The position numbers and the translations under genes were made by a program. A stretch of DNA of 64,000 nt, from assembly GCA_963823665.1 (NCBI GenBank), contig CAWGMQ010000005.1:992001-1056000 (forward strand), written 5' to 3'. The stretch comes from an uncultured Planctomycetota bacterium (GTDB taxonomy: Bacteria > Planctomycetota > Planctomycetia > Isosphaerales > Isosphaeraceae). The notes below the pieces were generated by a model. It worked only from the letters and a program-made list of their open reading frames with translations, searched no databases and was not told the DNA's origin. The stretch's first letter is position 1; each line of letters starts with the position of its first letter. Shown here one piece after another: positions 44,175 to 62,102 of the stretch.

Positions 44175-44780
44175 CTGGGACTTCGTGGTAGAAGTGGCAA
44201 TGCTCGGCGTTGTGGGCGGGGTGGATTCAGACGAGTCAAAGGCCTGTCACGTTTCCGCGGCGGTCGACGATCGCTTTTGAGGGGATGCCGAACTCGATTG
44301 TCTTGCTGCTGGGTGTTTTCGGCGGGGCTCGAGGCGGCTTCTGGCAATCGACGGTTCGTATTCACGAGCAAAGCCGGTTGTCACTGGGATCGCGTGCGGA
44401 TGAGCCGAGTTTACCATTGGATTGGCATACCAACATGACATCATTATCGGACGTGGCGGAAGGGTGAACTAAGTCCTTTCCGACCTTAATGTACGTGAGA
44501 GGCCGGCATGCAGACACCGCGAAGCGCTAGAAACCAAGCTTGACGCCGCGAAGCGCCGCGGTCCGGAATAACTCGAAGTAGAGTCGAGGTGTGACGCGGT
44601 GGTTTTAGGCTCGGCCTATCTGTGTCCGGCCCTTTCGTTTGCCGGTGCCTCACTAGCCTCGCCATGCTCCGTTTTCACACCCCGCTCATCAAACCGGGCG
44701 TGCAGTTTTCCCGCACCCGGCTTTCGGACAAGGCTGTACCCCATATACTGCTTCACACGTTCGCACACGAACGATTGCCG

Positions 44781-45755
44781 CTACGTTCTTTGGAGCTGAT
44801 AGAGTCTCAGCTTCTGGTGCAGATGTTGGTCATGGAAGCGTTTCTTGCCATCACCCTGTACCTTGAACTTCACGCACAACCACTGACGCACCCGATAGCG
44901 GACGTGGCTGTTGACGTTCCGGTAGGCTTTGCTGACCGTCCCGATGCGAAAGTAGTTGGACCAACCCTTTAACTTGCTGTTGATCCTCCCCACTTGCGCT
45001 TCGACGTCCCGCCCAGCCATCTTTCGCGTCGTCAGCTCACCAATCTCGCGGCAAATCCGCTCGATCTTCTTCCGCGACGGGCGAGGTCCCAGGTAGGAGT
45101 CGCCCGTCCGGCAGTCGTAGTTCCGGCTAAGGGTGTAACCCAGAAAATCGAACGACTCATCCGGCAGGCGGCACAATCGCGTTTTCGTCTCGTTCACCGT
45201 CAGCTTCAGCCTGGACATCATTCCCCGCATCGCGGTCATGGCCTCTTCGGCCGTGCCTCGGCAGCAGATGACGAAGTCGTCGGCGTAGTTAACGATTTTC
45301 GCGGCAAGACGCTGTTCATGCCCTCCCGTCTTCCACCCCTTCACAAATCGTCGCATGTAGATGTTGGACAACAACGGGGAAATTGGAGAGCCCTGCGGCG
45401 TTCCCATCTCCTGATCCCTATTCCGGGTCGTCCGATGGCGATTCCCATAGTCGTCTGTCTCTTCCACCGGTGTTTCCAGCCACATCTTGATCAGCCGCAG
45501 CATGCGGCTGTCGCTGATCCGACGGGACACCGATTTCATTAACTCCGCATGGGGAATGCTATCAAAGTACCCCGATAGGTCCGCGTCTACCACCTCGGTA
45601 TGCCCCGCTCTGAGCAGCCGTTCCACTTGGCGAACGGCGTCCAAGGCACTTCGTTCCGGGCGGTAGGCGTGTTGCTCCGGCTCCAAGTCGGCCTCGAAAA
45701 TCGGCTCCAAGACCAACACCGCAGCCATCTGTGCCACGCGATCTTTTATGCATGG
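44781..45755 (-). pseudogene. ltrA: group II intron reverse transcriptase/maturase, C-terminal part
   Basis: IKDRVAQ, DADLSGYFDSIPH, GTPQGSPISPLLSNIY, NYADDF, maturase GWSNYF; no endonuclease domain. Confidence 0.93.
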
Positions 45756-46105
45756 GATGCCCACAGCGCACTACCCCTTCATCCAGACCGCCTTCCGGAT
45801 TTGTTACCATCACCCATCCGCATCATCCGCTTCGGGGCCAGCGTGTTGAGATCATCCGAATTCGCCGAGGGAACGATCCTGACCTCATTGTCGTGACCCC
45901 TGACGGGCGTCACACCGCCATCGCCCTGAGCAGCACAGACTACTCTTCACCCGCCGAGCGTCCTCCCGCCGTGACGGCTGAGCACCTGCTCGACCTCGAT
46001 GGTTTGCGTCGCGTCGTCCAACTGCTCGATCGTCTAGCCCAACCGGAACTCGCGCCGTCAACCACTGGCGATCGCATCCAGACGAAATCGTCCGGACCGC
46101 GGTAG
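45752..46105 (+). CDS. small accessory ORF (DUF5372/Y4bD-like); its 5' end appears to lie at the opposite end of the element
   Basis: FVTITHPHHPLRGQ...PDG...STD...LLDLDGL pattern typical of recombinase-associated ORFs. Confidence 0.7.
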   Translation: MGCPQRTTPSSRPPSGFVTITHPHHPLRGQRVEIIRIRRGNDPDLIVVTPDGRHTAIALSSTDYSSPAERPPAVTAEHLLDLDGLRRVVQLLDRLAQPELAPSTTGDRIQTKSSGPR

Positions 46106-46157
46106 CATCACCCCACCAGCCCCGCACGTCGGGTTTCTGGATTAAGGAGATGCTTCT

Positions 46158-46442
46158 ATGAGCGTACGGATTGCGCACAAAGGGACCTCCGTCCCGCCCA
46201 CTCAGGTCTGGTCCGGTCTCACCGCAGAACGCCAGGCCCTTGTCATTCAGTTCCTGGCGCGTCTCGCGTCCAACCTCGTTACTGAAGATTCAATTCCAAC
46301 CCCCCGGAGCTCTGCCGATGATTCAGTCTCTTGCCCCAAAGATTCGGTCGGATCATCTCGACCGTCTAGCGCAGATCTACGTCCGCCAATCCACCATGAT
46401 TCAGGTGCGCGAAAACACCGCCAGCGGCGCCCGGCAATATGA
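46158..46442 (+). CDS. second small accessory ORF overlapping the recombinase start
   Basis: TAAGGAG RBS; VWSGLTAERQALVIQFLARLA amphipathic helix. Confidence 0.55.
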   Translation: MSVRIAHKGTSVPPTQVWSGLTAERQALVIQFLARLASNLVTEDSIPTPRSSADDSVSCPKDSVGSSRPSSADLRPPIHHDSGARKHRQRRPAI

Positions 46443-48416
46443 CCTGGCCAATCGCGCGGCGAACTGGGATGGCCCCTGGAGCGAATCCAGGTTATCGATC
46501 AAGATCAGGGGCACTCGGGAACGTCGTCGGCCGATCGCGACGGTTTTCAGCACCTGGTCGCGCAAGTTGGCCTGGGCCGGACCGGGGCTGTCTTGAGCCT
46601 CGAAGCCTCCCGCCTGGCACGATCTTGCAGTGATTGGTATCGTCTCATCGAGATTTGTGCCCTAACTAACACATTGGTCATCGACGAGGACGGGGTTTAC
46701 GACCCCACTCAATACTCCGACCGGCTTCTCCTGGGATTCCTGGGAACCATGAGCGAGGCCGAACTCCACTTGCTCCGTTGCCGCCTTCTGGGCGGCAAAT
46801 TGAAGAAGGCATCCGATGGCCAACTTCGGTTCCGGCCGCCTACGGGGCTGGTCTACGATCTTGAGCGCCGGATCGTTTTCGATTCCGACGAACAGGTCCA
46901 GCTGGCAGTCCGGCTGGTCTTCGATCTGTTCGACCAGTCGCCTTCGGCTTTGGCCGTCGTCAAACACTTCGCTGATCATCACCTCCAGTGCCCCACGCGG
47001 CTCTGGGGTGGCAGCCGACACGGTGAAGTCATTTGGAGACCGCTGAGCAATGGCCGTGTCCTGGACATCCTGCATAACCCCGAGTACGCGGGCGCCTATG
47101 TCAATGGCCGCACAAAGACTCGCCTTGTGTGCCTGCCTGGTGAAGAGCCGAGGGTTAAGGGCCGAACACGTCGAGTCCGGCCCGAGGACTGGCCATTCCT
47201 CATCCCCGGGCACCATCCCGGGTACATCACCTGGGATCAGTTCCAGCGGAACCAACAGCGGCTTGACGACAACCGGACGTTACCCGATCAAGATCGCCGT
47301 GGAGCGCTGCGAGAAGGCCTCGCCTTGCTCCAGGGAATCGTTCGGTGTGGACGATGCGGACGGCGGATGTCCGTCCGTTACCTCAATAATGCTTCAGTAC
47401 CATCATACGAGTGTAACTCATACCACACTCATTTCGCGGGCAAAACCTGCCAGTCGATCCGCGGTGATGGGGTCGACGCAGCGGTTGCGCGTGCCCTCCT
47501 GGAAGCCATGCGGCCAGCGCAGCTCGAGGTTTCGATGGCGGCCTTCGATCAGGTTGCGGCACAGGCACGCCAGCTCGATCGTCAATGGCAATTGACCCTG
47601 GAACGCGCTCGCTACGAGGCCGAGCTGGCCCGGCGCCGGTTCGTCTCCGTGGAACCGGAGAACCGATTGGTGGCTCGGACGCTGGAACGGGAGTGGAACG
47701 AAAGGTTAGCCGAGATCGAACGTATGGAACGAGATCAAACGCTCCGCCCTCAATTAGCCAGTCGGCTGGTCGATCCAGAGGAGCGATGCCGGGTGCTGGC
47801 ATTAGCTCAAGATCTCTCGAAAGTCTGGCATGCCCCGACAACGCCTCAGACGGCCCGCAAACAATTACTGGGATATTTGATCAAGGATGTGACTCTCTCT
47901 CGAGGAGAGACGCTAGTCCAAGTAGCCATCCGGTGGCAGACTGAGGCTTGCACCGAGCTCGAGGTTCCTCGCCCCAAGCGATCTTACGAGATGCGTCGGA
48001 CTGACCCGGTGGTCGTTGATCGGATCAAGGCCCTAGCGATGGAACACACCGACCGCCAGATCGCCGCGCTGCTGGATCAGGAGGGTTTCCGATCAGGCAC
48101 TGGAAGTCGATTTACTCGACACATCGTTGCACAACTTCGATATAGTTATTCAATTATGAGCTTATGTCCCGAGGCACCGGCGGCGTGCGCCGAGGTTTAC
48201 CGGGCGGATGGACGACGTTCCGCGAAGACCGCCGCGGAATTGCTCAACGTGAATGTGTCCACAATTGCGGAATGGTGCCAGTCGGGCACTCTGGATGGGA
48301 TCCAGTCCGCCCCTTACGCTCCATGGTGGATCAAGCTCACGCCGGGGATCATCGCTGGCTTGCGTAAGCCAACCCGGCGCACTTGGTCTCGGCGATCGGT
48401 TTCGTCAGAGAAATAG
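46318..48416 (+). CDS. large serine recombinase (resolvase, recombinase, zinc ribbon, HTH), 1-bp frameshift near 46460
   Basis: IYVRQS catalytic Ser, EASRLARS, LLQGIVRCGRCGRRM zinc ribbon, VEPENRLVARTLEREWN coiled coil. Confidence 0.92.
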
Positions 48417-48494
48417 GGCCCAGTATTGGGCGAGACCTTCTTCGATCAATCCCCAATGCCGTTGGAAAGAGGTGCAGTATGAACGACAGATCGG

Positions 48495-48818
48495 GATTCC
48501 GAGCGGCCTTTGCTTGCCATCCCCTTTCGGGATGAACACTCGCCGGACCGGCCGGGGACGATACGTTCCGTTCCTGAGTTCTTCCGTCAGTTCGTCCAAC
48601 CACTGGTCTCGTCCGTACTCCTCGATGTCCGCAAAGCTCTGGCGGTCGACCCCCGGAGCACCGCGATTATTGCGGCACCGGAAGAAGGCCCACTCCAAGA
48701 TGTCTCTGCGATGCACCTTGTCGTACAACGCGTAGAACCGATAGTCAGGCGAGTTCTTCGCTTTGGTGTGCAACGCCGTCTGTAACTTCCCAACCGTAAT
48801 TGGAGGTAATAGGCTCAC
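48495..48818 (-). pseudogene. ltrA: group II intron RT, N-terminal part
   Basis: AGGAG RBS with GTG start; RFYALYDKV, GAPGVD, YRPRPVRRVFIPKGDGKQRPLGIP. Confidence 0.93.
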
Positions 48819-49360
48819 GCCAATCTCCTGGATGTCAGTCGCGTATGACGTTGACCTTGAACCAAGGCCCCTTCCCTCCACCGACGTTACTCGGCTTCGC
48901 AGGTACTACGGACCTCTCCGCCACCCGATGCGGCCCGGCCTGTCCCTCACGGGCGTCCGGTTGAGGGTCACGCCCCTCACCGCATGGGTTTCCCGTGTTG
49001 CGTTAAAATCTCCGTTTACCGACATGCCGTCGTCATTACCCCGGTGGCCCGCTGGGCCTTGATCGCTCGTGGGACGGCCTATTCCAACCGTTTCCCTGTA
49101 CCCAGCGGCTGCGGCCTTCCCCATCCTATTGCAAGGTCGGCGTCCACATTGGTCGTTTCGAGGCCTGCTCAACGTTCACTGGCTATTACGGCCTGTCGGC
49201 TCGCCGAGTCGCCTAGAGCGACCCGTCTGTCTCGAAGGCTCCGACGGTTTCGTTTCCTCCCCTCGTCGCTTCGATAGCTACCGGCTGGAGCGACCCAGAT
49301 GCCGGGTGGGATTTGCACCCACTGAAGACCAACACCTTCAACACGGCGCACAATAGGTCT

Positions 49361-49434
49361 GACCCCGGACATTATGTCGCGCAAATCCGGATCTGTGGGG
49401 GACCTGGGTGGGCGACCACCCAGGTCTACCCGGC
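49361..49434 (+). other. degenerate 3' end (domains V-VI) of a second, opposite-strand group II intron
   Basis: CCGGAC...TCCGGATCTGTGGGG, then hairpin GACCTGGGTGG-GCGA-CCACCCAGGTC and the end TACCCGGC. Confidence 0.6.
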
Positions 49435-49502
49435 CCGTGGACGAAGCCGCGGAGCGCGAAGCTTGACACCGCGAAGCGCCACGAATCCCACGGGATTTCC
49501 CT

Positions 49503-52500
49503 TTACGAATTGTTGGAAATGTATAGCGCAATGAAATCCTTGAGAATATCAGCCAGGTGACCAATATCTACTCCAAATTTCATGAGGGGGATTGTGACAG
49601 CGGTGAACGTTCCCTTCAGCTTCTGCGCGTCTCTGAACACAACTGCCACTTGCGCTTTCAGCGTGTCGATCTCCACAACTGCCACGCTGTTACTAAAGGT
49701 CATGCTTATGGTCCGATGGCCGGCAACCTCGGTTGCGCTCAGGAGAAGGTCTTGGGTAAGTCTTGCGAGATTCAGCCCGACGTCGGCGATAGTGACCAAG
49801 TCACTTGAGGTAGAGATCAGATTTAAACCCAGCTGAATCAAACGATTCCCCTTGTTGTAGAACTGAAATCCCTCGTCGTCACCCCGTGCGATCAAGTCGA
49901 GCCCGGTATAGCGCCATTTGAAGCCAGGAATGACCACATACTGGATCAACGTCTGAGCGATGGCGAGCGTGAGCAATTCTGGCCCAGCAGTTTGAGCGAC
50001 GCTGATGGTCGATTGGATCGTCAGCTCCACGGCGAGTTCGGCTAGGCTCGCCTGCCTCCCCGAGGGATCGACGAGATTGACGGGGTCGCCGTCCGCGTAG
50101 GCGTAGCTATTGGAGAAAATCCGGACTAGGCTGGCACCGTGGAGTGGGTCCACGCTCAAAAACCGCCCTGTTGCCGGGTCAAGGTAGCGAGCCCGTAAAT
50201 CGTCGAGGCCGGTCGTTTGGTCCTGGTACTCACCTTCGAACAAGTAACGTGTCACCGCGTTCCCCGAGTGCGCCAGGGTGTTACCGAACGCGTCATATAC
50301 ATAGCCGCCGATCACCTTCCCAGACGAATCGGTCAGCGCTCGTGTGCTGCCAAGTCCGTCGACTAAGAGGATCGTTCGCGCACCGCCCACTACCTGCGAA
50401 ATCGGTCCCGTGCCGATTCCGAAGACGGCCGAGGACGAGATCTGACCGCCGGGCGTGTACTCCTCGACGACCTGGGCGTAGGGAAGATTCGTATCGACGA
50501 GCTTGTTGGTCGTCTGGCCGTCGACTGTGGATTGAACGAGGTTACCATCGGCGTCGTAGCGATTGACCTCCTCTTGCGTCCCCGTGGAATTGGTGACCTT
50601 GGCGTCAATCAATTGGTTCTGAGAGTCCCATTCGTAGAGAACCTGATCGGTGGCGCTCGTGATCTGCGAGAGCGTGTTGCCGTTGTTGTCGTAGGTGTAC
50701 TTCGTGGTCTGGCTGCCGGTGGTCGAAGTTAGGAGGCGGTCGTTGGCGTCGTACGTGTAGTCCGTCGTGCCCTGGGTTGAGTCGACCATGGTCAGGCGGT
50801 TGCCGACGGGATCATAGGTATAGGATATGTCCTGGTTGCCGTTAACCGGGTCGGTGATGATCTCCTCGATTAAGCGGTCAAGGGCGTCGTAGTTGTACTG
50901 GTCGGTGCGGCCGTTGGCCTCGACGACGGAGTCGGTGCGGCCGTTGGCGGCTAGCGTGTACTTGTAACTGGCGATCACGCCGCTCGGGCCGTCGTCTTCG
51001 AGGTAGACCAAGCGGTTGAGCGAGTCGTACTGGCGGATCTCGGACGTATTGTTGGGGAACTGCGTCTTGACCAGGTTGCCGGCGGCATCATAGGTGTAGG
51101 TCGTCACTCCGCCCTGGGGGTCGGTCACGGTGGCCATCCGACCGAGGGCGTCGAAGGTGTAGGTCGTCGTGCCGGCCGGGATGGTGATGGAAGTGCGGTC
51201 GCCAGCGGCGTCGTAGGTGTACGTGATCGAGGTGCCGTCGGGGTCGGTCTTGGACAGGAGGCGGTCTAGGGCATCGTAGGTATAGGTTGTGGTTCCCCAG
51301 CCCGGCACCGTGTCGCTGGCTCGCTGGCCGGTCGCGGTGTAGGTGAAGGTCTCGGTGGTCCCGTCGGGCAGGTTCTCGGCGGTGAGCCGGCCGATCACGT
51401 CGTACTGGTAGGTGATCGTCGCCCCGTTGAAATCGGTCGTGCTCGCGACGTTGCCGTTGGCGTCGTACGTTGTCGTCGACTTCTGGCCCATTGGCAGGAT
51501 CGTGGCGATCTTCTGGCCCAGGCCGTCGTACTCATAGGTGGTCGTATGGCCGTTGGCGTCGGTCTGGGAGATCAGGTCGCCGGCCTCATCGTAGGCGTAC
51601 GAGGTCGTCTGGCCCAGGGCATCGACGACAGCCGTCAGATGGCCCAGTGCGTCGTACTGATCGTGCGTGGTCCGGCCAAGCTGGTCGGTCTCGGCAATCC
51701 CGCGGCCGACGGCGTCGTACGTGGTCGACGTGGTCGTGCCGTCGGCGTAGATCGTCTCGATGAGCTGCCCCGCGGCGTCGTAGACCGATTTTGTGGTGTG
51801 GCCCAACGGATCGGTGGTGGCGACGGCGTTCCCGGCGGCGTCGTACGCCGTGCTGGTCACATCGCCCAGGGCGTCGGTGACGGAGACCTGGCGTCCGTCG
51901 GCGTCATAGGCGAAGGTCGTCTTGTTGCCCAGCTCGTCGATCTGCGCGGTGACCTCGCCGTCGGCGTCGTAGACCGTGCTCGTGGACGTGCCGTCGGGGT
52001 TGATGGTCTTGACCAGTCGGCCCAGTGCATCGTACTGCATCGTTGTGACCCGACCCTCTTGATCGATCTGCGCGATCACGTTCCCGGCGGCGTCATATTC
52101 CGTCTTGGTCGAGGTTCCGTCAGGGTAGTCGGTCTCGATCAGCTCACCGCGCGCGTCATAGAGGTACTTCGTCACGTTTCCGAGCGCGTCAGTGTCGGAG
52201 ATCTTCAGGCCGTCGGCGTTAAACTGCGAGCTGGTGGTGTGCCCGTCGGCGTCGGTGACGGAAATCACGTTGCCATTGGCATCGTAGACCGTCTTTGTCA
52301 CCAGCGTCTGCACGCCGGAAGGAGTCGTGAGCAAGGAGGTCGAGGTGATCGGGTTGCCGCTGGAATCGTAGGTGGTCGTGGTGGTGTGGCCCAGGGCGTC
52401 GGTCGTGCTGATTACCTGGCCCTGGGAATCGTACTGAAACGCCGTGGTGTCGCCGATGGCGTCGGTGAGCGTGATCGGATTGCCCGAGATGTCGTAGGTC

Positions 52501-55500
52501 AGTTTGGTGACATCGCCGAGCGGGTCGGTGGTCGACAGCAGGTTGCCCTTGGCGTCGTAGGCGTTGGTCGTGGTGTTGCCCAGCGGATCGCTGGTGGTGA
52601 GGACATCGCCGTAGGCGCCATAGGTGCTTCGAGTGACGTTGCCCATCGGATCGGTGGTGGTCAAGGCGTTGCCCGAGGCGTCGTAGGTGTAGGTCGTCGT
52701 GCGGCCGAGCGGGTCGGTCTGGGAGAGCAGGTTGTTGTTGGCGTCATAGGTGCTCGTGGTCACGCCGCCGAGGGCATCGATCTCGGTGAGGATGTTGCCC
52801 TGCGCGTCATACTCGTACGTCGTCGGATTGCCCAGGGCGTCCGTGACCGTCTCGCTCGAGTCAGTCGGATCGTAAGCCATGTCGACGGTCTTGCCGGCGG
52901 CGTCGACGAGGCCGATCAGACGGCCTTGATCGTCGTAGAGAGTCTTGACTCCGGTGCGGCCCAGCGGGTCGATCACATCCTGAAGATAATGGGCGAAGTC
53001 CGTGCTGTAGTCGAACGTCGTCACGTTTCCAGCGAGATCCGTCACCGCAACGAGGTCGCCGGCGGCGTCGTAGGTGTAGTGGATCGTGTTGCCCGAGGGA
53101 TCGATGACGGATGTGATCCGGCCCTCGGGATCGCGCTCGAATGTGACCTTCTCGCCGGAGGTGCTGGTGATGCCGCTGGGAGAAAACGTCAGCGCGTCGC
53201 CGTTGCGATCGGCGACGGTATCCAGCATGCCCGTCTGCCCGTTAATCGTGTAGACGATGCCGTCTTTGGTGGTCAACGTGTAGGTCCCGCCGAAGGAGGG
53301 GCTGGCCGGGTTGTAGGGCAGGTCGCCGTTAAAGTCGGAATACGTGCCGTCGTCGTTCTGGCGCAGGTCGAACTGGGTGACGCTGAGGGTGTCGGTCACG
53401 CCTGGATCGGCGGTGAAGCTCGGATTCATGATGCCGAGGAAGCCCGACGCGAAGCCCGGCGAGAGTTGAGGAGTGAACGTGAACCCCTCGCGCTGGCCGC
53501 CCGGCAACGTCACGTAAACGCGCGTGCCGTTCTGGAACGCGCTAAAGATGCCCTCGGATTCCTGGCCGGTTGTGGGCACGCTCGTCTGGAGGTTGGTGTC
53601 GCCGAACTCGAGCTGCCAGCCGTAGCCGAAGTCCTCGCTCGTGCCGGCGTTCAGCGTGTCGTAGGTCCTTGTAACGGTGATCGGGATGCCCGAGACGGGG
53701 ACGGTCAGGTCGGTGAACGACAGGGTGAAGTTACCTAGCTTGAGATTGCCGGCAACGCTGATCTCTTGATCAACGGTCGACGTGTGGTTGCCCGTGTTCG
53801 TCGCGGTCAGGCGCAGGTCGTAAGTGTCGTTGGCCAGCAGGGTCGGGTCGAAGGTGCCGAGCAGGGCGTTGTTGACGGGCGTGGTGCCGCCGGCAATGTG
53901 CTTGACCTGGACGCCGTCGAGGGTGTAGACGTCGAGCGACCACGAGGCCAGGTGCTGGTCGGCGACTGTTCCGGTCACGTCGGTGAACGTCGTGACCGTC
54001 GCACCGTCGGTGGGCGAGGCGATCGCGACGTTGGGCGCACCGGTGACGCTAGGGTCGAACACCACGAGCGAGGCCGTCGCCTTGGCGGTGTTGCCGGCGA
54101 GGTCGGACGCGGTCGCCAGCACGTTGAGGCTTCCGGCCTGGGTGACCTTCAGTGTCGCCGTTCCGTTCGCATCCAGTACTCGGATCGTCCCGCCCACGGT
54201 CAGGACCTCGGACGTGACGCCGACATTGTCGGACGCCAGAACCTGGAAGGTGACCATGTCGCCCAGCTTGGCAGGGTTTTCGCTCATCTCAAGCTGGACG
54301 CGCGGCGCCTGGGTGTCGGCCGAGACCATGATGGCGTAGGTTTGGGTGACCGAGAGGCCAAGGCCGTCGTCCACCTCGACCTGGACGTGCGCCGAGCCGA
54401 CGTTGGACGGGGCCGTGGCCCAGGTGATTCGCCCCAGCGAGTCGACGGCCATGCCGCTCGGCCCGGCCACGATCTGGTAACTGAGCGGGGTGTTGTCCGG
54501 GTCGCTCGCCTGCACGTCGTAGTGATAGGTCAGCCCCGCGGTCACGGCGGTGACCGGGCTCGAGGTGATCAACGGCGGCGCGGGAACCGGCTCAACATCA
54601 ATGACGAACCGCTGCGAGGCGGTCGCGCCCGAGGGATCAGCGGCCGCGACCGTAACCGTCTGATCGCCAAGTTGCGCGGTGGTCGGTGTCCACGAGACCA
54701 GGCCGCTGGCGGCGACAATTGCCATTCCAGCGGGTGGAGCGAGCAGGGAATACGTCAGGGTCGCACCGGAGGGATCGGTGGCCGTGACGGCATAGCTGTA
54801 GCCCGTGCCCACGATCGCGCGGTCGGACGGGGTCGACGTGATCACCGGCGGCAGGCTGGACGTGGACGTGGAGGCGACGACGGTGAAGCTCTGGGACGTC
54901 GAACCACCCAGGCTGTCGGCCACCAGGACCGAGACGTTCTGCGGGCCGGCCTGGCCCGAAGTCGGGGTCCAGAGGATCAGGCCCGTTACCGGGTCGATGG
55001 TCATGCCGGAGGGCTTCGTGGGCAGGGTGAATGTGAGCGGATTGTTCAGGGTGTCGACGGTTTGCACCGCGTAGGCGTAGGACGAACCGACTGTCGCATC
55101 GGTGGGCGGCGTCGAGATGATCTGTGGTGGAATGTCCGCGGCGAAGATGGCGACGGAGAAGCTCTGGCTGTCGCTCCCTCCTTCCGCGTCGACCACGCGG
55201 ACGGTGACCGCCTGGGGACCGACCTGGGAGGCGACGGGAGTCCAGCGGATCGTCCCTAGCGCCTGGTCGATCGACATTCCGGCAGGTGCGGTATCCAGGA
55301 ACCAATAGAGCGGATCGCTCTGGGGATCAACGGCGGTCGCGTTGTAGCTAAACGGGCGGCCCACGACGTCGAAGAGCGGGGGCGAAGAGGTGATCGACGG
55401 CGGCTGGCTGGTGACGCTGGCCGAGACGGTGATCGCCACGTCCTGGGTTGCGACGCCGCCCCGGCCATCGTTCACCGAAATCGCGACGGCGTTTTGCCCG

Positions 55501-58500
55501 AGCTGGGCCTGCGTGGGGTTCCAGGTAACCAGGCCGCTGGCGCTTATGGTCATGCCCGCGGGCGCGGTGGTGAGCGAATAGGTGATGGGGTCGCCGTCGG
55601 GATCGGTGGCCTGGACGGCGTAGAGATAGGTGCGCCCCAGGCCGATCGTATCGCGGGGCGTGGAGCTGATGACGGGTGGTCGATTGGCGGAGGCGGCCAC
55701 GACGGGCAGGTTGAACGACTGGTCAGCGCCGCCGCCCTGACCGTCGGTGACCACGACATCAACCGGCGCGGTCCCGACCTGCGCCACCGTTGGGGTCCAG
55801 GTCACGAGGCCACTCGACGGGTCGATCGTCATGCCGACCGGGTTCGTGGCGAGTGAGTAGGTGAGCGGGTCGTCGTCGGCATCCTGGGCGAGCACCTGGT
55901 ACTGGTATGGGTACCCCGCCGTGGCGGGACCGAGCGGCGTGGAGGTGATCACGGGAGGGCGGTCTGCCGCGGCGACCGTCAGCGTGAAGGACTGGAGCGC
56001 CACGCCCCCGTTGCTGTCCCGGACGCGGAGAATGGCATCGGCCTGGCCTGTCTGCGAGTCGTCCGGGGTCCAGACGACCTCGCCGGTTGTGGGGTCGACG
56101 GCCATCCCCGCCGGCGCGACGGGCAGGTCGAAGGTAAGTGGGCTGCCCGTGGGGTCGACGGCTGTGGCGTTATACTCATATGTCGATTCGGCGACGGCCT
56201 GTGTGGAGGGCGTGCTCGTGAACCAGGGAGATGGGGGGCCCTGCGGCGTCGAAGTTGGCGTGACCGAGAAGTCGTTGTCCGTGGAGGACTGGCCGGCAGC
56301 GAGGGTGTCGGTAAAATACGGGGTTGTCGTCGTGCCTGGCAAGAGCGCCAGGTCGGCGTTGCCGCCAAATCCGCTCGGGAAGGCGATCGACCCGATCCAG
56401 GTGGCCGCGGCCGTTGTCTTGTTGACACGGTACAGGTCGGAGACACCGGAGCCGTCGATTCCCGAGGCAGCGTACAGGACGCCCTGTGAGTCGATCGCGA
56501 GATTTGCTCCGCTCGGGAACGTCGGGTACGACCCGCCATTGCCGGCGAGATGACCGATCACGGTCGTCGTAAGGTCAGTCAGATCGATCTTGAGTAGTGT
56601 TCCATCAAGGGAAGCGCCGTAGAGTGTGCCGTCGGTGTCGAACGCCAGGTCGGCCCCCAAGTGGCCGGTGTTGAGAACTAAGGTGGCTGCAGCGGTCTCG
56701 GGGTTCACACGCCACAAGTCCCCATTGACAAAGCCCCAGGAGTAAAGAAAGCCGTCCGGGCCAAAAGTCAGCGAGTTTTGGTCCGACGCACCGAAGAATC
56801 CGATGAACTGGGTCGAGCCCGTCGCCAGATCAATCGAGTAGAGCGATGTGGTGGAACCGATGGTGGTTCCGTAGCCCAGGCCGTTTTTGGGGTCGATGGC
56901 GATGCTCTCGATGGATCCGACGGTCCCGACTTCCTCCGCAACCGGGGATGTCTGAAAGTTGTTTATAGCGTAGAGCACGGTCGAGCCCGTCTGCTGGACG
57001 AGGGACACCCCGTAAAGAGCGTCCGGTGTCACCGCTGCCACCGGAGAAGCCTGCTGCCATCCCTGGGGCGGAACTTCGGCCACGGTATAGTTGCCCGGCG
57101 CCAGTCCGGTGAAGGCATAGTCTCCCTGGGGGTTGGTCGTTGCGGTCGGGTCGCCCGGGTCGAGCTTACCGTCGTGATTCTGGTCGAGGAACACGGTCCA
57201 GCCGGCCAGCGGCTCGTTGTCGGTCGAGCGCGTGACCGTGCCGGTGATCGAGCCGGGAAGCGGCTGGTCGGTGAAATTGTTTCCGGTGGAGGTCTGGCCG
57301 GCGGCGAGGGTGACGGTGTAGAAGGAGGTTGTTGTGCTTCCCGGCAAGAGCGCCAGGTCGCCAGTGCCGCCGAATCCGTTCGGGAAGGCGATCGAGCCGA
57401 TCCAGGTCGCCGCGGCGGTCGTCTTGTCAACCCGGTACAGATCCGCGAGTGGGGAGCCCTCAATGCTCGCGACGGCGTACATCACGCCCTGGGAGTCGAT
57501 GATGAGGCCCGGAGCGTAATACCCTTGGGCGAGCAGCCCTTGGTCACTGGTAAGCGTGCCAACCACCGTGCTCGTGAGGTTAGTCAGATCGAACCTCAGT
57601 AGCGACCCGTCGTACGAGATCCCATAGAGTGTCCCATCCGTGTCGAAGGCAAGGTCGGCCCCCCAGTGACCGGTGTCGAGAACGAAGGTGGCCGCACCGG
57701 TCACGGGGTTCACACGATACAAGTTGTCAAAAATGCCGTAGCCCCAGGAGTAAAGATAGCCGTCGGGGCCAAACGCGAGTGAGTTCTGGTCGGCGATGCC
57801 CGGCGTACCGATGAGCGTCGTCGCACCTGTCGCCGGGTCAATCGAGTAGACCGAGGTGGTTGGGGAATCGATGGTGGTCCCATAAAGCCCGCCGGTCGCG
57901 GGGTCGCCGGCGAGACTCCAGATCGATCCGACCGGGCCGATTTCCTCGGCGACGGGCGCCGTCTGGAAGTTGTCGATGGTGTAGAGCACGTGCGACGAGC
58001 CTTGTTGAAACTGCGACACCCCGTAGAGTGTATCCGGAGTCCGCCCCGCCACCGGAGAAGCCTGCTGCCAACCCTGGGGCGGGACCTCGGCCACGGGGTA
58101 GGTGCCCGGGGCCAGGCCCGTGAACGTGTAATCTCCCTGGGCGTTGGTGACGGTCGAGACTTCGCCAGGGTCGAGAATTCCGTTCTGGTTCGTGTCGAGG
58201 AAGACGGTCACGCCGGCCAGGCCGGTCGATGTGCCCGCCAGCGTGATCACTCCCTGGATCTCGCCGGGGGTGCCTTGCGCGGCGTTGATCGTGTAGCTCT
58301 GGGTGTCGAAACCGCCGCGGCCGTCGTCAACGCGGACGGTGATCGGGATCGCCAGGTGGCCAATCTCCAGGGTGGGAGGGTTCAAACCCTCCTTGCTCGA
58401 AAACCGGACCTGCTGATCGGTTGACTGGTACTGCGGCACGCTCTCATATGCCAGCGCAAGCGTGAGGTAACCGCTCGCGATGTCGGGCTGCAGGTCGTAG

Positions 58501-61500
58501 CCGCTGAAGTCGAAGACGACGTCCTGGCCTGCTTGCGTTGGGGTCGCCTGGGCCAGCAGGTCCTGGCTCTTGTTCAGATCCGCGAGGAACGCGTCGCCGA
58601 AATTGGCACCGGTGATTCCGGTCATGGGGTCGGGGCTCGGGTTGATCGTTCCGAACGGGCTGAAGACGCCGGTTCCCTGCGCCCAGTTGTTGTCGGCCAC
58701 GTGATAGAGGCCGATCGTGCTGGAGCCGCTCACGATCGTGGTGTGAATAACAAGCTGAAGTGACGTGACCGGCCAGGTCACACCGGAGAGATTGAAGCGG
58801 AGGAACGAAAAGTCGATCGCCGAATTGAGCGGGTCGTTTCCACCCGGCTCGTCGCCGGCGAACACCTCGAGAAAAGGCGAATCGCCGCCGTTTTCTTCGA
58901 GGCGACTGGCCGGCTCGGTCAGAACGATCGAATCGTCGGTTGGCTCCAGGTTCACTACGCTCTGTTCGCTCGCGGTCACCGTCCCCTGTACCAGGCCCGA
59001 GGATGGGTCGATGCTGAAGTTCGAGGGAGCGGTCACAAGAGAATAGGTCAGTGGGTCGTTGTCGGGGTCGAGTGCCTTGACTGCGTAATCGTACGGAGTC
59101 GATTGCGGCTGGAGGAGGAGCTGAGTCACCGGCGTGCTGATGATCGTCGGGGGATGATCTCCCAGCGCCGCTGTTGCGATTACCGCAAAAGATTGGGTTG
59201 CCGTACCTCCCTTCCCGTCCGTCACCGAGAGTTCGACGCCGGAAGAGCCGGTCTGGCTCGAGGATGGCGTCCAGGTCACCAGGCCTGTCGTGGGATCGAC
59301 GGCCATTCCCGAAGGGCCTGAAATCACCGCGAAGGTGAGCGGGTCGTCGTCGGGATCGGAAGCCGTGGCCTGATAGATGTACGGTGCGCTCACACTTGCC
59401 GAAACAATCGGCGTGGACGTGAAGACCGGGGGCCGGTCCGGCGGCGGGTTGATCACCGAGAGGGTGAAATCTTGCTCCGCTGAGCCTCCGTGCCCATCGT
59501 CGACGAGGAGGGCGATGGCGGCGTTGCCCACGTCGGCGCTAGCGGGCGACCATGTGACCGTTCCGCTGGCCGCGCCCACAGTCATGCCGGAGGGGCCGGA
59601 AAGCAGCGAGAACGTCAGGGGATCGTTGTCCGGGTCGGCGGCCGTTGCGTCGTAGACGTAAGCGCTGCCGGCGACCGCCTGCACCTTCGGGGTCGATGTG
59701 AACTGGGGCGGGCGGTTGAGCTCCGCGAGGAAGACCAGGTCGTAGGTGAACGGGATGCCGTTCGGGTCGTCGAACGCGACGGTCCGGGAATCGGTCGTTT
59801 CCCCCGCTCCGAGTTTTCCGCCCGGCACCAGGGCACTCAGGTCGAAGTAGGGCAAGCCGTCCGGCGTGGTTCCGTCGGCGCCAGCGACGCGCACCGAGGG
59901 ATCGCTGATATGGTCGATCGCCACGATCAGGGGGGCGTCCATAAAGTACTGGCCGGCATTCCGGGCCGCAACATCGGCATACAGCACGCTGTCTTGCTGG
60001 TCGAACGATGACCGTCCGTAGACGGGCTGGACACTGGCCGAGACGTCGCTCAGGGCGGCGAAGTCGATGGGCGCGCCAGGCTGCGCCGGGGACGCGGCGG
60101 GTTGGCCGCCCGGGTCGACCGGCTGACCCAAGAGTGGCGCCACTTGCACATCGCCGACATCAACCGATGTATTCACGTCGCCGTCGTTGTTCACCAGCCG
60201 GAAGACGAGCGAGGCGACCGTTCCTGGTGTGACGTTCGAGACATCGAGCGTAACCTTCTGCCCGTTCTGCGTGGCCCAGGCGCCAAGCTCCGCAGGCTGG
60301 CCTTCCGAGACGTTCAGGAAGGCGTCGCGGCTGGCGGCGAAGGTCGGTACGAGGGAGTTTCCCGAGGCGTCTACCAGGGCCACCTCGAAGGCGTCCTTTA
60401 CCCGACCCTGGCTGGTCGTGTCGAAATCCAGGTCACTGTAGTCGAAGCTCAGGGTCGACGCCTGCGGCGGGATGGTGATCGGCTGCGACAGGGTGACGTC
60501 GAACGAGTCTCCCTCGCGCAGCGTGGCGTCACAACCGCTGATCGTCACGCTCCCCATGCCGGTATTTGATCCGCCGCTTTGAGCGACAACGGCGTTGCCG
60601 AACCCCATGCAGGTGTCGAGGGTGAACGCGAAATCAGAGGGCGCCGAGACGTTGCCCGCGCGATCGGTGGCAAGGAAGTGGACGGTGTGCGGGCCGTCGT
60701 CCGTGCCGTCCAGCGCCAGGCTGCTCGTCAGGCTGAAGTTGCCGGCAGCGTCGAGTGACAGAGGAGCGAAAGCGCCGCCGTCGAGCGCCCATTCCGCACT
60801 AGCCACGCCCGAGAGCGCATCGGCCACGTGGCCCGTGATCGTGATGTTCTGGGTCGTGGTCAGTCCGGGCGGCGGGCTGGTCACGGTCACCGCCGGCGGG
60901 GTGGAATCCAGGGTGAAGGCGAAGTTGGTGACGGGCGAGACATTGCCCACGAAGTCGGTCGAGACCAGGTGGACGGTGTGGCTGCCGTCGGCGGAATGGT
61001 CGAGGGGCAGACTGGTCGTAAGGCTGAAATTGCCGGCGGTGTCGAACGATACCGGGGTGTAGGCACCGCCGTCGACCGCCTCCTGGAGCGATGCCACCCC
61101 GGTGAGATTGTCCAAAACGCGGCCGACGAGGGTGGGGTTGCTGTTCGTGATTAGCCCCTGGGCAGGGGACGTGATCGTCACGGACGGTGCCTGCGTGTCC
61201 AGAACGATTCCGATCGCGGCCGTCTGCTGCTGGCCGAACGAGTCGGTGGCCCTCACCTGGAGGTTGTTGGCGCCGGGCGTGAGCGCGACGCTGAACGAAA
61301 ACAACCCCGAGGAATTCGCGGTGGTCGAGCCCTCGTCGAACTGTCCATCGCTGCCGGTTCCGAGCGCCACGGCGGCGCCGGGGTTGGTCGTGCCGTTCAA
61401 GGTGATTGCGGCGGTCGCGGTGGCCAGGCTACCGGAGGGCAACGTCACCAGGCCCGGCGGCGTCTGCAAGGAGAGCGCCAGAGGAGTGACGCTCGTCGCA

Positions 61501-62102
61501 TCGTTCAGGTTGTAACGCCACTGGGTGTAGTCGAACGAGGAAATCATGCCATCGAGGTTGCTATCTGCCGCCACTATGTAGCGGCCGTCCCCGGCGACCG
61601 ACCCGATCAGCGAGCGGATCAAGGATCCATCCGCCAGGTTGATCTGGTGGTTGCCATCGGCGTCGCCCGCGAGGAATACATTGAGCTGGAAGGCCCCCGA
61701 AGTGCCCCGGTCTCCGCCCACGGCAAGGTTGTAGCTGCCGTAAGTCAGCGAGGCCAGGATCAAGCTCTGCGTGGTGCCGCCCAGGTTGGCGTTCACGTAG
61801 GTCGGCGTGACAGTCGCGCCCGAGGAGGTAGTGATCGTGACGGCGGCTGGATCGAGGGAACTCCCGGTCGGTGCCTGAACCTCGAAGCCGATCACGGCCT
61901 GGCTGCCAGGGAGGGTGAAGTTGGATTTAGAGATGGTTATGGGTATGCGCTGCACGCTGCCTGCGGCCGGGACCGCGCCTTCGAACTGCGCGAAGATGTT
62001 GGACGCATCCAGCAGCGTGCGGTCCTCGAGACGCTCGAAGGAAATGCGGGCCCTGCGGGCGGGATGGCGCAGGGGTCTGGCAGGGCGCTTGGGGTCTCGC
62101 AT
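49503..62102 (-). CDS. giant 4199-aa Rhs/YD-repeat surface protein: LEPRxLL-type N-terminus, dockerin-like domain, Ig/cadherin-like repeats, SdrD-B and propeller modules, Rhs core, ~185-aa C-terminal domain
   Basis: FERLEDRTLL; GDADGNHQINLAD...ADSNLDGMISSFD; repeated PP.ITSTP...Y.Y...A.DPD.DPLTYSL; VFLD.N.NG.LDPGE; RARYLDPATGRFLSVDP...PVNLVDPSG. Confidence 0.95.
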   Translation of the reverse strand: MRDPKRPARPLRHPARRARISFERLEDRTLLDASNIFAQFEGAVPAAGSVQRIPITISKSNFTLPGSQAVIGFEVQAPTGSSLDPAAVTITTSSGATVTPTYVNANLGGTTQSLILASLTYGSYNLAVGGDRGTSGAFQLNVFLAGDADGNHQINLADGSLIRSLIGSVAGDGRYIVAADSNLDGMISSFDYTQWRYNLNDATSVTPLALSLQTPPGLVTLPSGSLATATAAITLNGTTNPGAAVALGTGSDGQFDEGSTTANSSGLFSFSVALTPGANNLQVRATDSFGQQQTAAIGIVLDTQAPSVTITSPAQGLITNSNPTLVGRVLDNLTGVASLQEAVDGGAYTPVSFDTAGNFSLTTSLPLDHSADGSHTVHLVSTDFVGNVSPVTNFAFTLDSTPPAVTVTSPPPGLTTTQNITITGHVADALSGVASAEWALDGGAFAPLSLDAAGNFSLTSSLALDGTDDGPHTVHFLATDRAGNVSAPSDFAFTLDTCMGFGNAVVAQSGGSNTGMGSVTISGCDATLREGDSFDVTLSQPITIPPQASTLSFDYSDLDFDTTSQGRVKDAFEVALVDASGNSLVPTFAASRDAFLNVSEGQPAELGAWATQNGQKVTLDVSNVTPGTVASLVFRLVNNDGDVNTSVDVGDVQVAPLLGQPVDPGGQPAASPAQPGAPIDFAALSDVSASVQPVYGRSSFDQQDSVLYADVAARNAGQYFMDAPLIVAIDHISDPSVRVAGADGTTPDGLPYFDLSALVPGGKLGAGETTDSRTVAFDDPNGIPFTYDLVFLAELNRPPQFTSTPKVQAVAGSAYVYDATAADPDNDPLTFSLLSGPSGMTVGAASGTVTWSPASADVGNAAIALLVDDGHGGSAEQDFTLSVINPPPDRPPVFTSTPIVSASVSAPYIYQATASDPDDDPLTFAVISGPSGMAVDPTTGLVTWTPSSSQTGSSGVELSVTDGKGGTATQSFAVIATAALGDHPPTIISTPVTQLLLQPQSTPYDYAVKALDPDNDPLTYSLVTAPSNFSIDPSSGLVQGTVTASEQSVVNLEPTDDSIVLTEPASRLEENGGDSPFLEVFAGDEPGGNDPLNSAIDFSFLRFNLSGVTWPVTSLQLVIHTTIVSGSSTIGLYHVADNNWAQGTGVFSPFGTINPSPDPMTGITGANFGDAFLADLNKSQDLLAQATPTQAGQDVVFDFSGYDLQPDIASGYLTLALAYESVPQYQSTDQQVRFSSKEGLNPPTLEIGHLAIPITVRVDDGRGGFDTQSYTINAAQGTPGEIQGVITLAGTSTGLAGVTVFLDTNQNGILDPGEVSTVTNAQGDYTFTGLAPGTYPVAEVPPQGWQQASPVAGRTPDTLYGVSQFQQGSSHVLYTIDNFQTAPVAEEIGPVGSIWSLAGDPATGGLYGTTIDSPTTSVYSIDPATGATTLIGTPGIADQNSLAFGPDGYLYSWGYGIFDNLYRVNPVTGAATFVLDTGHWGADLAFDTDGTLYGISYDGSLLRFDLTNLTSTVVGTLTSDQGLLAQGYYAPGLIIDSQGVMYAVASIEGSPLADLYRVDKTTAAATWIGSIAFPNGFGGTGDLALLPGSTTTSFYTVTLAAGQTSTGNNFTDQPLPGSITGTVTRSTDNEPLAGWTVFLDQNHDGKLDPGDPTATTNPQGDYAFTGLAPGNYTVAEVPPQGWQQASPVAAVTPDALYGVSLVQQTGSTVLYAINNFQTSPVAEEVGTVGSIESIAIDPKNGLGYGTTIGSTTSLYSIDLATGSTQFIGFFGASDQNSLTFGPDGFLYSWGFVNGDLWRVNPETAAATLVLNTGHLGADLAFDTDGTLYGASLDGTLLKIDLTDLTTTVIGHLAGNGGSYPTFPSGANLAIDSQGVLYAASGIDGSGVSDLYRVNKTTAAATWIGSIAFPSGFGGNADLALLPGTTTTPYFTDTLAAGQSSTDNDFSVTPTSTPQGPPSPWFTSTPSTQAVAESTYEYNATAVDPTGSPLTFDLPVAPAGMAVDPTTGEVVWTPDDSQTGQADAILRVRDSNGGVALQSFTLTVAAADRPPVITSTPLGPATAGYPYQYQVLAQDADDDPLTYSLATNPVGMTIDPSSGLVTWTPTVAQVGTAPVDVVVTDGQGGGADQSFNLPVVAASANRPPVISSTPRDTIGLGRTYLYAVQATDPDGDPITYSLTTAPAGMTISASGLVTWNPTQAQLGQNAVAISVNDGRGGVATQDVAITVSASVTSQPPSITSSPPLFDVVGRPFSYNATAVDPQSDPLYWFLDTAPAGMSIDQALGTIRWTPVASQVGPQAVTVRVVDAEGGSDSQSFSVAIFAADIPPQIISTPPTDATVGSSYAYAVQTVDTLNNPLTFTLPTKPSGMTIDPVTGLILWTPTSGQAGPQNVSVLVADSLGGSTSQSFTVVASTSTSSLPPVITSTPSDRAIVGTGYSYAVTATDPSGATLTYSLLAPPAGMAIVAASGLVSWTPTTAQLGDQTVTVAAADPSGATASQRFVIDVEPVPAPPLITSSPVTAVTAGLTYHYDVQASDPDNTPLSYQIVAGPSGMAVDSLGRITWATAPSNVGSAHVQVEVDDGLGLSVTQTYAIMVSADTQAPRVQLEMSENPAKLGDMVTFQVLASDNVGVTSEVLTVGGTIRVLDANGTATLKVTQAGSLNVLATASDLAGNTAKATASLVVFDPSVTGAPNVAIASPTDGATVTTFTDVTGTVADQHLASWSLDVYTLDGVQVKHIAGGTTPVNNALLGTFDPTLLANDTYDLRLTATNTGNHTSTVDQEISVAGNLKLGNFTLSFTDLTVPVSGIPITVTRTYDTLNAGTSEDFGYGWQLEFGDTNLQTSVPTTGQESEGIFSAFQNGTRVYVTLPGGQREGFTFTPQLSPGFASGFLGIMNPSFTADPGVTDTLSVTQFDLRQNDDGTYSDFNGDLPYNPASPSFGGTYTLTTKDGIVYTINGQTGMLDTVADRNGDALTFSPSGITSTSGEKVTFERDPEGRITSVIDPSGNTIHYTYDAAGDLVAVTDLAGNVTTFDYSTDFAHYLQDVIDPLGRTGVKTLYDDQGRLIGLVDAAGKTVDMAYDPTDSSETVTDALGNPTTYEYDAQGNILTEIDALGGVTTSTYDANNNLLSQTDPLGRTTTYTYDASGNALTTTDPMGNVTRSTYGAYGDVLTTSDPLGNTTTNAYDAKGNLLSTTDPLGDVTKLTYDISGNPITLTDAIGDTTAFQYDSQGQVISTTDALGHTTTTTYDSSGNPITSTSLLTTPSGVQTLVTKTVYDANGNVISVTDADGHTTSSQFNADGLKISDTDALGNVTKYLYDARGELIETDYPDGTSTKTEYDAAGNVIAQIDQEGRVTTMQYDALGRLVKTINPDGTSTSTVYDADGEVTAQIDELGNKTTFAYDADGRQVSVTDALGDVTSTAYDAAGNAVATTDPLGHTTKSVYDAAGQLIETIYADGTTTSTTYDAVGRGIAETDQLGRTTHDQYDALGHLTAVVDALGQTTSYAYDEAGDLISQTDANGHTTTYEYDGLGQKIATILPMGQKSTTTYDANGNVASTTDFNGATITYQYDVIGRLTAENLPDGTTETFTYTATGQRASDTVPGWGTTTYTYDALDRLLSKTDPDGTSITYTYDAAGDRTSITIPAGTTTYTFDALGRMATVTDPQGGVTTYTYDAAGNLVKTQFPNNTSEIRQYDSLNRLVYLEDDGPSGVIASYKYTLAANGRTDSVVEANGRTDQYNYDALDRLIEEIITDPVNGNQDISYTYDPVGNRLTMVDSTQGTTDYTYDANDRLLTSTTGSQTTKYTYDNNGNTLSQITSATDQVLYEWDSQNQLIDAKVTNSTGTQEEVNRYDADGNLVQSTVDGQTTNKLVDTNLPYAQVVEEYTPGGQISSSAVFGIGTGPISQVVGGARTILLVDGLGSTRALTDSSGKVIGGYVYDAFGNTLAHSGNAVTRYLFEGEYQDQTTGLDDLRARYLDPATGRFLSVDPLHGASLVRIFSNSYAYADGDPVNLVDPSGRQASLAELAVELTIQSTISVAQTAGPELLTLAIAQTLIQYVVIPGFKWRYTGLDLIARGDDEGFQFYNKGNRLIQLGLNLISTSSDLVTIADVGLNLARLTQDLLLSATEVAGHRTISMTFSNSVAVVEIDTLKAQVAVVFRDAQKLKGTFTAVTIPLMKFGVDIGHLADILKDFIALYISNNS

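Follow-up and report, generated by a model that had tools for sequence, protein, structure and literature searches.

A serine recombinase element at a conserved codon of group II intron reverse transcriptase genes

An interrupted group II intron gene

We analysed a 64,000-nucleotide stretch (the window) from an uncultured Planctomycetota bacterium (GenBank assembly GCA_963823665.1, contig CAWGMQ010000005.1, positions 992,001 to 1,056,000). It contains a group II intron whose reverse transcriptase (RT) gene is interrupted by a small element encoding a large serine recombinase (LSR). Feature coordinates are collected in Table 1. The element is real, and its nature as a site-specific LSR parasite of group II intron RT genes is well supported.

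The host has the GUGYG 5' end, domains I–VI and internal RT open reading frame (ORF) of a group II intron, and measures about 2.03 kb once the element is subtracted. Deleting 2,739 bp in silico leaves a single open RT frame of 432 amino acids (108 + 324), which starts at a GTG at 48818, runs through RPLGIPCIKDR, and contains YADD and PQG. An earlier note on this DNA had described the RT gene as split and restorable by deletion, and this frame bears it out. TIGR04416 is matched by the N-terminal and C-terminal parts alike. The source genome has 20 RT matches.

Between its attachment sites the element holds only three ORFs in 2.74 kb and no virion, packaging or lysis genes, so it is not a prophage. 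Protein-family searches of the ORFs gave no relaxase match, and no sigma-70-like promoter was found in 45500–48700. The three genes listed in the earlier note are present as three ORFs, but the first is itself broken by integration. The recombinase has the domain order of the LSR family: a YVRQS N-terminus, then resolvase, recombinase and zinc-ribbon domains and a C-terminal helix-turn-helix (HTH). The YxRxS motif of serine recombinases has a catalytic role, and here it lies upstream of a frameshift. Compared with 14 aligned relatives, the LSR gene is one base short near 46458; intact relatives are about 700 amino acids long and up to 93% identical. The frameshift sits in 22 bp of GC repeats; 4 of 23 aligned rows are shifted there, and near-identical siblings are in frame. 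It may reflect slippage or a consensus error. The source genome has a single copy of the element, and its sole other LSR relative is 40% identical.

Table 1. Features of the element and its host intron (window positions; the outer limits of the hybrid sites are approximate)
Feature	Position	Strand	Basis
Group II intron, insertion host	44578..49351	-	Rfam RF02003 (D1-D4-4, domains I–IV) 49181-49324; RF00029 (Intron_gpII, domains V–VI) 44578-44725; GUGCG 5' end at 49351
RT/maturase C-terminal part, 324 codons from the Pro codon; PQG, YADD, GIIM domain	44781..45755	-	PF00078, PF08388, TIGR04416
RT/maturase N-terminal part, 108 codons, last residues RPLGI	48495..48818	-	TIGR04416 positions 2-70
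LSR element, 2,739 bp including one GG core copy, antisense to RT	45756..48494	+	End comparison; identity of same-genome copies stops here
Left hybrid attachment site, GG core 45754-45755	45731..45778	.	Junction and homologue comparison
Right hybrid attachment site, GG core 48493-48494	48470..48518	.	Junction and homologue comparison
DUF5372 gene, 3' piece (candidate recombination directionality factor)	45756..46105	+	PF17342, E 9.5e-10
DUF5372 gene, 5' piece: ribosome-binding site 48469-48474, ATG 48479-48481, five codons, core	48469..48494	+	Start position fixed in 23/23 distinct elements
Small ORF B, 94 aa, overlaps LSR start	46158..46442	+	No family match; first ~50 aa conserved
LSR, one base missing near 46458	46318..48416	+	PF00239, PF07508, PF13408, weak PF12728

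Target site, crossover core and related insertions

We compiled 191 LSR loci from 121 family genomes, GTDB contigs and metagenomes, taking the best 30 or 80 loci per search, and measured LSR identity to the protein P0002. At 59% identity or above there are 44 loci, including the window and four duplicate pairs. In 37 of them the element is flanked, on at least one side, by an RT half broken at the PLG(I/V/L/M)|P codon. The remaining seven comprise three at contig ends or cut (L059, L062, L073), one decayed copy with another flank (L035), and L136, L141 and L149, described below. None of the 147 loci below 59% shows the arrangement; four have an RT at some other place in the locus, and the flanks of many are short. 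A search with the right-end motif, blind to RT, returned 23 ends in 9 of the 121 genomes: 21 at the RT codon in the usual orientation, one inverted within an RT, and one in a different gene with look-alike DNA. Having 22 of 23 ends at one codon is far from the low target specificity of Tn4451-type elements. The earlier note had proposed the RT motif as the LSR's attB, with a GG core, and had named the flanks of homologues as the check; these strongly support the proposal. Homologues at unrelated sites, which would tell against it, do occur, but as a minority.

The targets are diverse. The 37 junction pairs hold 29 distinct attB sites, and 23 target RTs (six were left out: four short, one inverted, one non-RT) have a median identity of 33% over 60 residues; a 60% threshold sorts them into 10 groups. 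The insertions recur in many related bacteria from soil, and RT-inserted loci include ones from Planctomycetota, Chloroflexia, Thermoflexales and Methylococcaceae. In one genome, elements 99.6–99.8% identical occupy three different RTs, with identity ending at the element ends, which indicates recent movement. All 203 records from the plasmid collection fall below 60% identity.

The sequence GGGAT is present at both element junctions (45754-45758 and 48493-48497). We defined a two-ended set of 29 loci, in which the RT alignment fixed the left ends of L140, L150 and L152, and the L142 right end was shifted 24 bp past a tandem repeat. GG stands at both ends in 28 of the 29 and is followed by a variable base, which gives a 2-bp core; the 29th, L136, has an AA core as read by eye. 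The GGGAT that the earlier note saw is thus shared, but the core is just GG, and the extra 3 bp are a likeness of attP to attB. A 5-bp target duplication was ruled out since homologues have only GG in common at both ends, and the absence of target duplication beyond the core, also claimed earlier, holds.

When the ends of the window's element are joined, 11 of 23 positions are symmetric about GG. This is modest for a single site, as 12 or more symmetric positions are reached at 637 of the 63,940 positions scored in the window. When 23 distinct attP reconstructions are compared, however, symmetry falls at fixed distances of 2, 3, 15–17, 19 and 21 bp from the core, reaching 0.9–1.0 at 15–17, 19 and 21 bp. 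The symmetric circle junction described in the earlier note is evident over the 23 sites, but not strong for the window's site alone. The outer-arm distances agree with zinc-domain contacts on attP at bp 16–24 (PMC3783163; here and below, papers cited by PMC number are cited for the portions available to us).

One element (L029) is inverted relative to its intron. Its target RT has the sequence PLGIG, so that GG stands on the RT strand. PLGIG alleles occur naturally, with seven uninterrupted matches in 6 of 301 genomes, two of them 88–90% identical to the L029 RT. Given these alleles, a mismatched crossover as the origin of the inverted copy is unnecessary. In protein sequence, 24 of 120 DUF5372 database entries start with a peptide fitting the other-frame D-G-K-Q-R-P-L-G-I-G, suggesting that inverted insertions are common. 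Orientation in a serine integrase is reportedly set by the central dinucleotide, to judge from the title of a 2003 study by Ghosh. An inverted insertion at a PLGIG allele is what this dinucleotide-polarity rule would lead one to expect, and serine integrases have a core pairing requirement (PMC5499854).

Relatives with other flanks were placed in a FastTree tree of 81 LSRs (L036 and L086 were left out as short; deep nodes are weakly supported). L141, L149, L153, L066 and L067 form a sister group of the RT-targeting rows. By this sequence comparison, the RT target appears as a strong tendency of the clade and not as an invariant. In L141 (670-716) and L149 (560-608), GG-core left ends of 63–67% relatives adjoin what by eye resembles group II intron domain VI; Rfam gave no confirmation in these flanks, and the contigs lack the other element end. 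Their target may be the domain V/VI junction. L153 (2950-2990 and 5678-5720) is a 56% relative with an apparent AC core, and the sequence in which it lies begins, judged by eye, like an integron attC site. LSRs about 39–40% identical in G111 and G107 have 4–8 equal-score copies per genome, as insertion sequences do.

Many copies are decayed or carry additional insertions. In L058, L216, L030, L226 and L060 there is a second insertion at (Y/F)FD codons, 63–69 codons into the RT C-terminal half; it is about 2.46 kb long in L060 (compared with L061) and in L216 holds a second LSR (31%). Three comparisons (L058/L216 with L224, L030 with L226, L142 with L143) show near-identical elements that share one RT flank but carry, on the other side, flanks belonging to different intron types. 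These chimeric RTs could come from recombination between copies or from mis-assembly at a 2.7-kb repeat. Since every copy occupies the same RT codon, crossing-over between two of them would exchange RT halves from one intron lineage to another.

Around the window's intron, short GCTTGACnCCGCGAAGCGCC-like palindromic repeats lie on either side (44513-44560, 49459-49482). Just beyond its 5' end, 49370-49435 (+) resembles the 3' half of domain V and domain VI of another group II intron, and loose ends at 49387-49388 in sequencing run X1 also resemble domain V. The neighbouring 4,199-aa ORF (49503-62102, minus strand) has Ig-like repeats and an RHS/YD-repeat C-terminal region. In genome G000 (contigs C3, C6, C8 and C11), seven equal-score matches to one 634-aa RT (L013-L019), several beside a second intron RT, look by sequence like a recently expanded intron with empty target motifs.

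The circle form and the split DUF5372 gene

The joined ends describe a putative excised circle. Its junction had no match in viral contigs, in a set of 239 loci or in the 121 genomes with two mismatches allowed, which is not proof of absence. Excised circles are rarely assembled. The circle-form DUF5372 N-terminus was found in none of the 120 listed proteins. The comparison with sequencing runs used contigs only, and no run matched half of the window's sequence words; of 36 joints, 15 were listed, and none of these 15 is a circle junction. The listed pieces that match at 100% leave position 46458 uncovered. A contig from run X2 does link 45752 to 48496, an empty site in a related intron. Of the two junctions that the earlier note proposed to look for by read mapping, the empty site appears in this one contig, and the circle junction in none of the listed joints.

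At each of the 27 distinct standard RT attB sites the reading frame continues through the junction, so excision would leave no scar. The earlier note had suggested that integration and excision could switch intron mobility off and on. This may be so, but no circle junction was found in the sets searched, this copy's LSR is frameshifted with no close second copy in the genome, and the candidate directionality gene lacks a start when integrated. These features fit a mostly one-way RT knock-out with rare reversal.

The DUF5372 gene is split by integration. From the right end, a ribosome-binding site and ATG continue in frame through the core into the left-end DUF5372 ORF, giving 121 amino acids. 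A junction-spanning in-frame ORF of 97–139 amino acids exists in all 28 GG two-ended loci, and its start codon lies at a constant distance from the core in all 23 distinct elements. Judged from the DNA alone, joining of the ends in the circle would be the only way for the gene to gain a ribosome site and start.

The left piece is predicted to fold as a small beta barrel with one helix (mean predicted local confidence, pLDDT, 68.8). Foldseek gave no match at E ≤ 0.001, the best VIA Z score (4.8, to SH3/KOW-like folds) is too weak to infer function, and Atlas matches were only DUF5372 and unnamed clusters. Modelled with LSR residues 135-651, DUF5372 gave a complex score of 0.71, compared with 0.00 for the best of three controls. 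Among the pairs used for calibration, 116 of 157 solved ones and 2 of 215 mismatched ones reach the mark for this score; the calibration is only roughly valid for the alignments used here. Runs agree in at least 74% of contacts, with a partner pLDDT of at least 68. Predicted contacts lie at LSR 295-302, 349-365 and 434-498, which cover the zinc ribbon and, in our own domain reading, the base and flanks of the coiled coil. Verified recombination directionality factors (RDFs) are predicted to bind the zinc-domain/coiled-coil region of LSRs, although false positives are also reported (PMC12286644). The model supports binding of the DUF5372 product to the LSR, and its most likely role is that of a directionality factor.

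Interpretation and known systems

We consider it quite probable that the element is an insertion-sequence-sized integrative LSR parasite of group II intron RT genes with a DUF5372 cofactor made from the circle. The LSR would act like a phage serine integrase, recombining an RT attB with the attP of the circle, which has a GG core between imperfect inverted arms. The attB would be the codons for the conserved R-P-L-G-I-P-T-x-x-D-R, with the cut at bases 1 and 2 of the Pro codon. As very different introns have this motif in common, a single recombinase can find, in many hosts, a target that is dispensable and present in multiple copies. The arms would read almost symmetrically, leaving the GG dinucleotide alone to fix orientation: antisense to RT in Pro alleles and sense in natural Gly alleles. 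Integration would inactivate the RT/maturase and leave the ribozyme domains intact. It would also cut the DUF5372 reading frame off from the ribosome site and start codon. The element would thereby silence its own cofactor, and the full-length, LSR-binding protein would be made mainly from the excised circle. Spread to new introns would imply excision or copying via the circle.

Several observations weigh against parts of this account. L136, L221, L229 and L230 nest among the RT-targeting LSRs in the tree, whose deep nodes have weak support, and L221 sits in a non-RT gene. L136 (805-3658), a 66% relative with the AA core, lies in an IS91-family transposase gene (Y2_Tnp, PF04986), within YGL-F-SP codons; its attachment-site arms and split gene are as in RT-inserted elements. 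Two proteins (P0121, P0202) join DUF5372 pieces 89–91% identical to the window's to an IS66 transposase C-terminus, which suggests insertion at a look-alike site in IS66. The DNA evidence for inversion is one locus (L029), and no circle junction appeared in any set examined, whether viral contigs, loci, genomes, proteins or run contigs. An internal GTG, TTG or ATG in the left piece of 12 of 23 elements, although not in the window's copy, could give a shorter protein; the predicted LSR interface lies entirely within that piece. An excision factor made only after excision is also counter-intuitive.

This last point is where another reading of DUF5372 enters, one that we take seriously without favouring it. 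The protein could promote integration or time re-integration, with integration locking the element in place and ORF B or basal LSR activity driving excision. A driver of integration made only from the circle needs no extra assumption and is consistent with the predicted LSR binding. LSRs of the TnpX/TndX type act both ways without an RDF (PMC5704250). On the other hand, the predicted binding site matches that of RDFs that promote excision and also inhibit integration. A regulated on/off intron switch like skin or SPbeta, in which signalled excision would restore the RT, allow the intron to splice and move, and be followed by re-integration, is improbable. Scarless excision at the in-frame attB sites would suit it, and SPbeta behaves this way with spsM (PMC5499854). 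But neither a circle nor a same-strain empty site was found in the sets searched, many copies are decayed or further interrupted, the window's LSR is frameshifted and the genome has just one other LSR relative, at 40%, and the copies are dispersed over unrelated introns like transposons.

The off-target or retargeted copies (L221, L136, L141, L149 and the IS66 fusions) might instead point to a relaxed, multi-target LSR transposon that accumulates in RT genes since insertions there are harmless. We regard this as very unlikely: tolerance would scatter insertions over the RT and other dispensable DNA, but the RT-blind ends, with one exception, meet one codon of one motif, and the exceptions resemble the attB sequence or carry a changed core. 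An assembly artefact or chance juxtaposition can practically be dismissed. Mis-joins are possible at long repeats, and the frameshift lies in a GC-repeat stretch with shifted rows; the same junctions nonetheless recur across many independent assemblies and phyla, which limits doubt to the frameshift and the chimeric flanks.

Beyond the LSR parasite with a circle-made cofactor, we offer a doubtful extension, in which such elements form a class of minimal serine-integrase hyperparasites with a built-in state sensor, namely a directionality cofactor whose translation needs the circle junction. One circle could then push the other copies in a cell to excision and restore several RTs simultaneously, copies could swap RT halves, as the three chimeric cases may show, and a changed core could allow sister lineages to jump to IS91 transposases or to the domain V/VI junction of the intron.

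These results bring to light a DNA element that specialises in bacterial group II introns. It may account for many of the broken intron RT genes seen in genomes and would act as a natural brake on how far retroelements spread. The dozens of natural attB variants, readable attP and candidate RDF are a resource for integrase engineering and for studying shifts in LSR specificity, and the family offers a natural test of the dinucleotide-polarity rule in one compact set of LSRs. A function is offered for DUF5372, and its split gene accounts for the erratic N-termini that gene callers assign to the family.

Phage-type serine integrases with RDFs (Bxb1, phiC31, A118/LI, SPbeta SprA-SprB) have the same LSR domain set, a 2-bp crossover, a symmetric attP and a gene-internal attB, and their excision precisely reconstitutes the target gene (PMC5499854), as it would in the element. 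Their predicted RDF site is at the zinc domain/coiled-coil junction (PMC12286644), like that predicted for DUF5372. In contrast to them, the element has no phage genes and only three ORFs in 2.7 kb, its LSR has a longer C-terminal tail bearing the HTH, its target is a motif of another mobile element in RTs about 33% alike, and attP runs through its candidate RDF gene, splitting it. Tn4451/Tn4453 (TnpX) and other serine-recombinase integrative mobilizable elements are likewise small and LSR-moved, with identical 2-bp cores and several copies per genome (PMC5704250). Tn4451 itself shows low target specificity, works without an RDF and encodes mobilisation and resistance functions (PMC5704250). 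The element, in contrast, is specific for one codon and encodes a candidate cofactor, but neither a recognised relaxase nor recognised cargo. Among the LSRs of Durrant et al. (2022), there are likewise clades that target a single site within a conserved gene cluster; in the available main text and eight supplementary files, where long tables may be incomplete, the terms reverse transcriptase, group II intron and maturase do not occur (PMC10083194). Targeted literature searches, with ISfinder and subscription journals outside their scope, found no published description of the element or of DUF5372 in the text available.

Group II twintrons, as far as the accessible accounts describe them, also involve a mobile element targeting a group II intron; they are RNA-based and splice out, whereas the element is DNA-based, unspliced and breaks the RT. 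In SSV1-type archaeal integrases, the tyrosine integrase gene is split by its own attP, so that, as here, an element's own gene is broken by integration. The enzyme here is a serine recombinase, and it is a small accessory gene that loses its ribosome site and first five codons. The natural polarity flip and the split candidate RDF are features added to those of known serine integrases.

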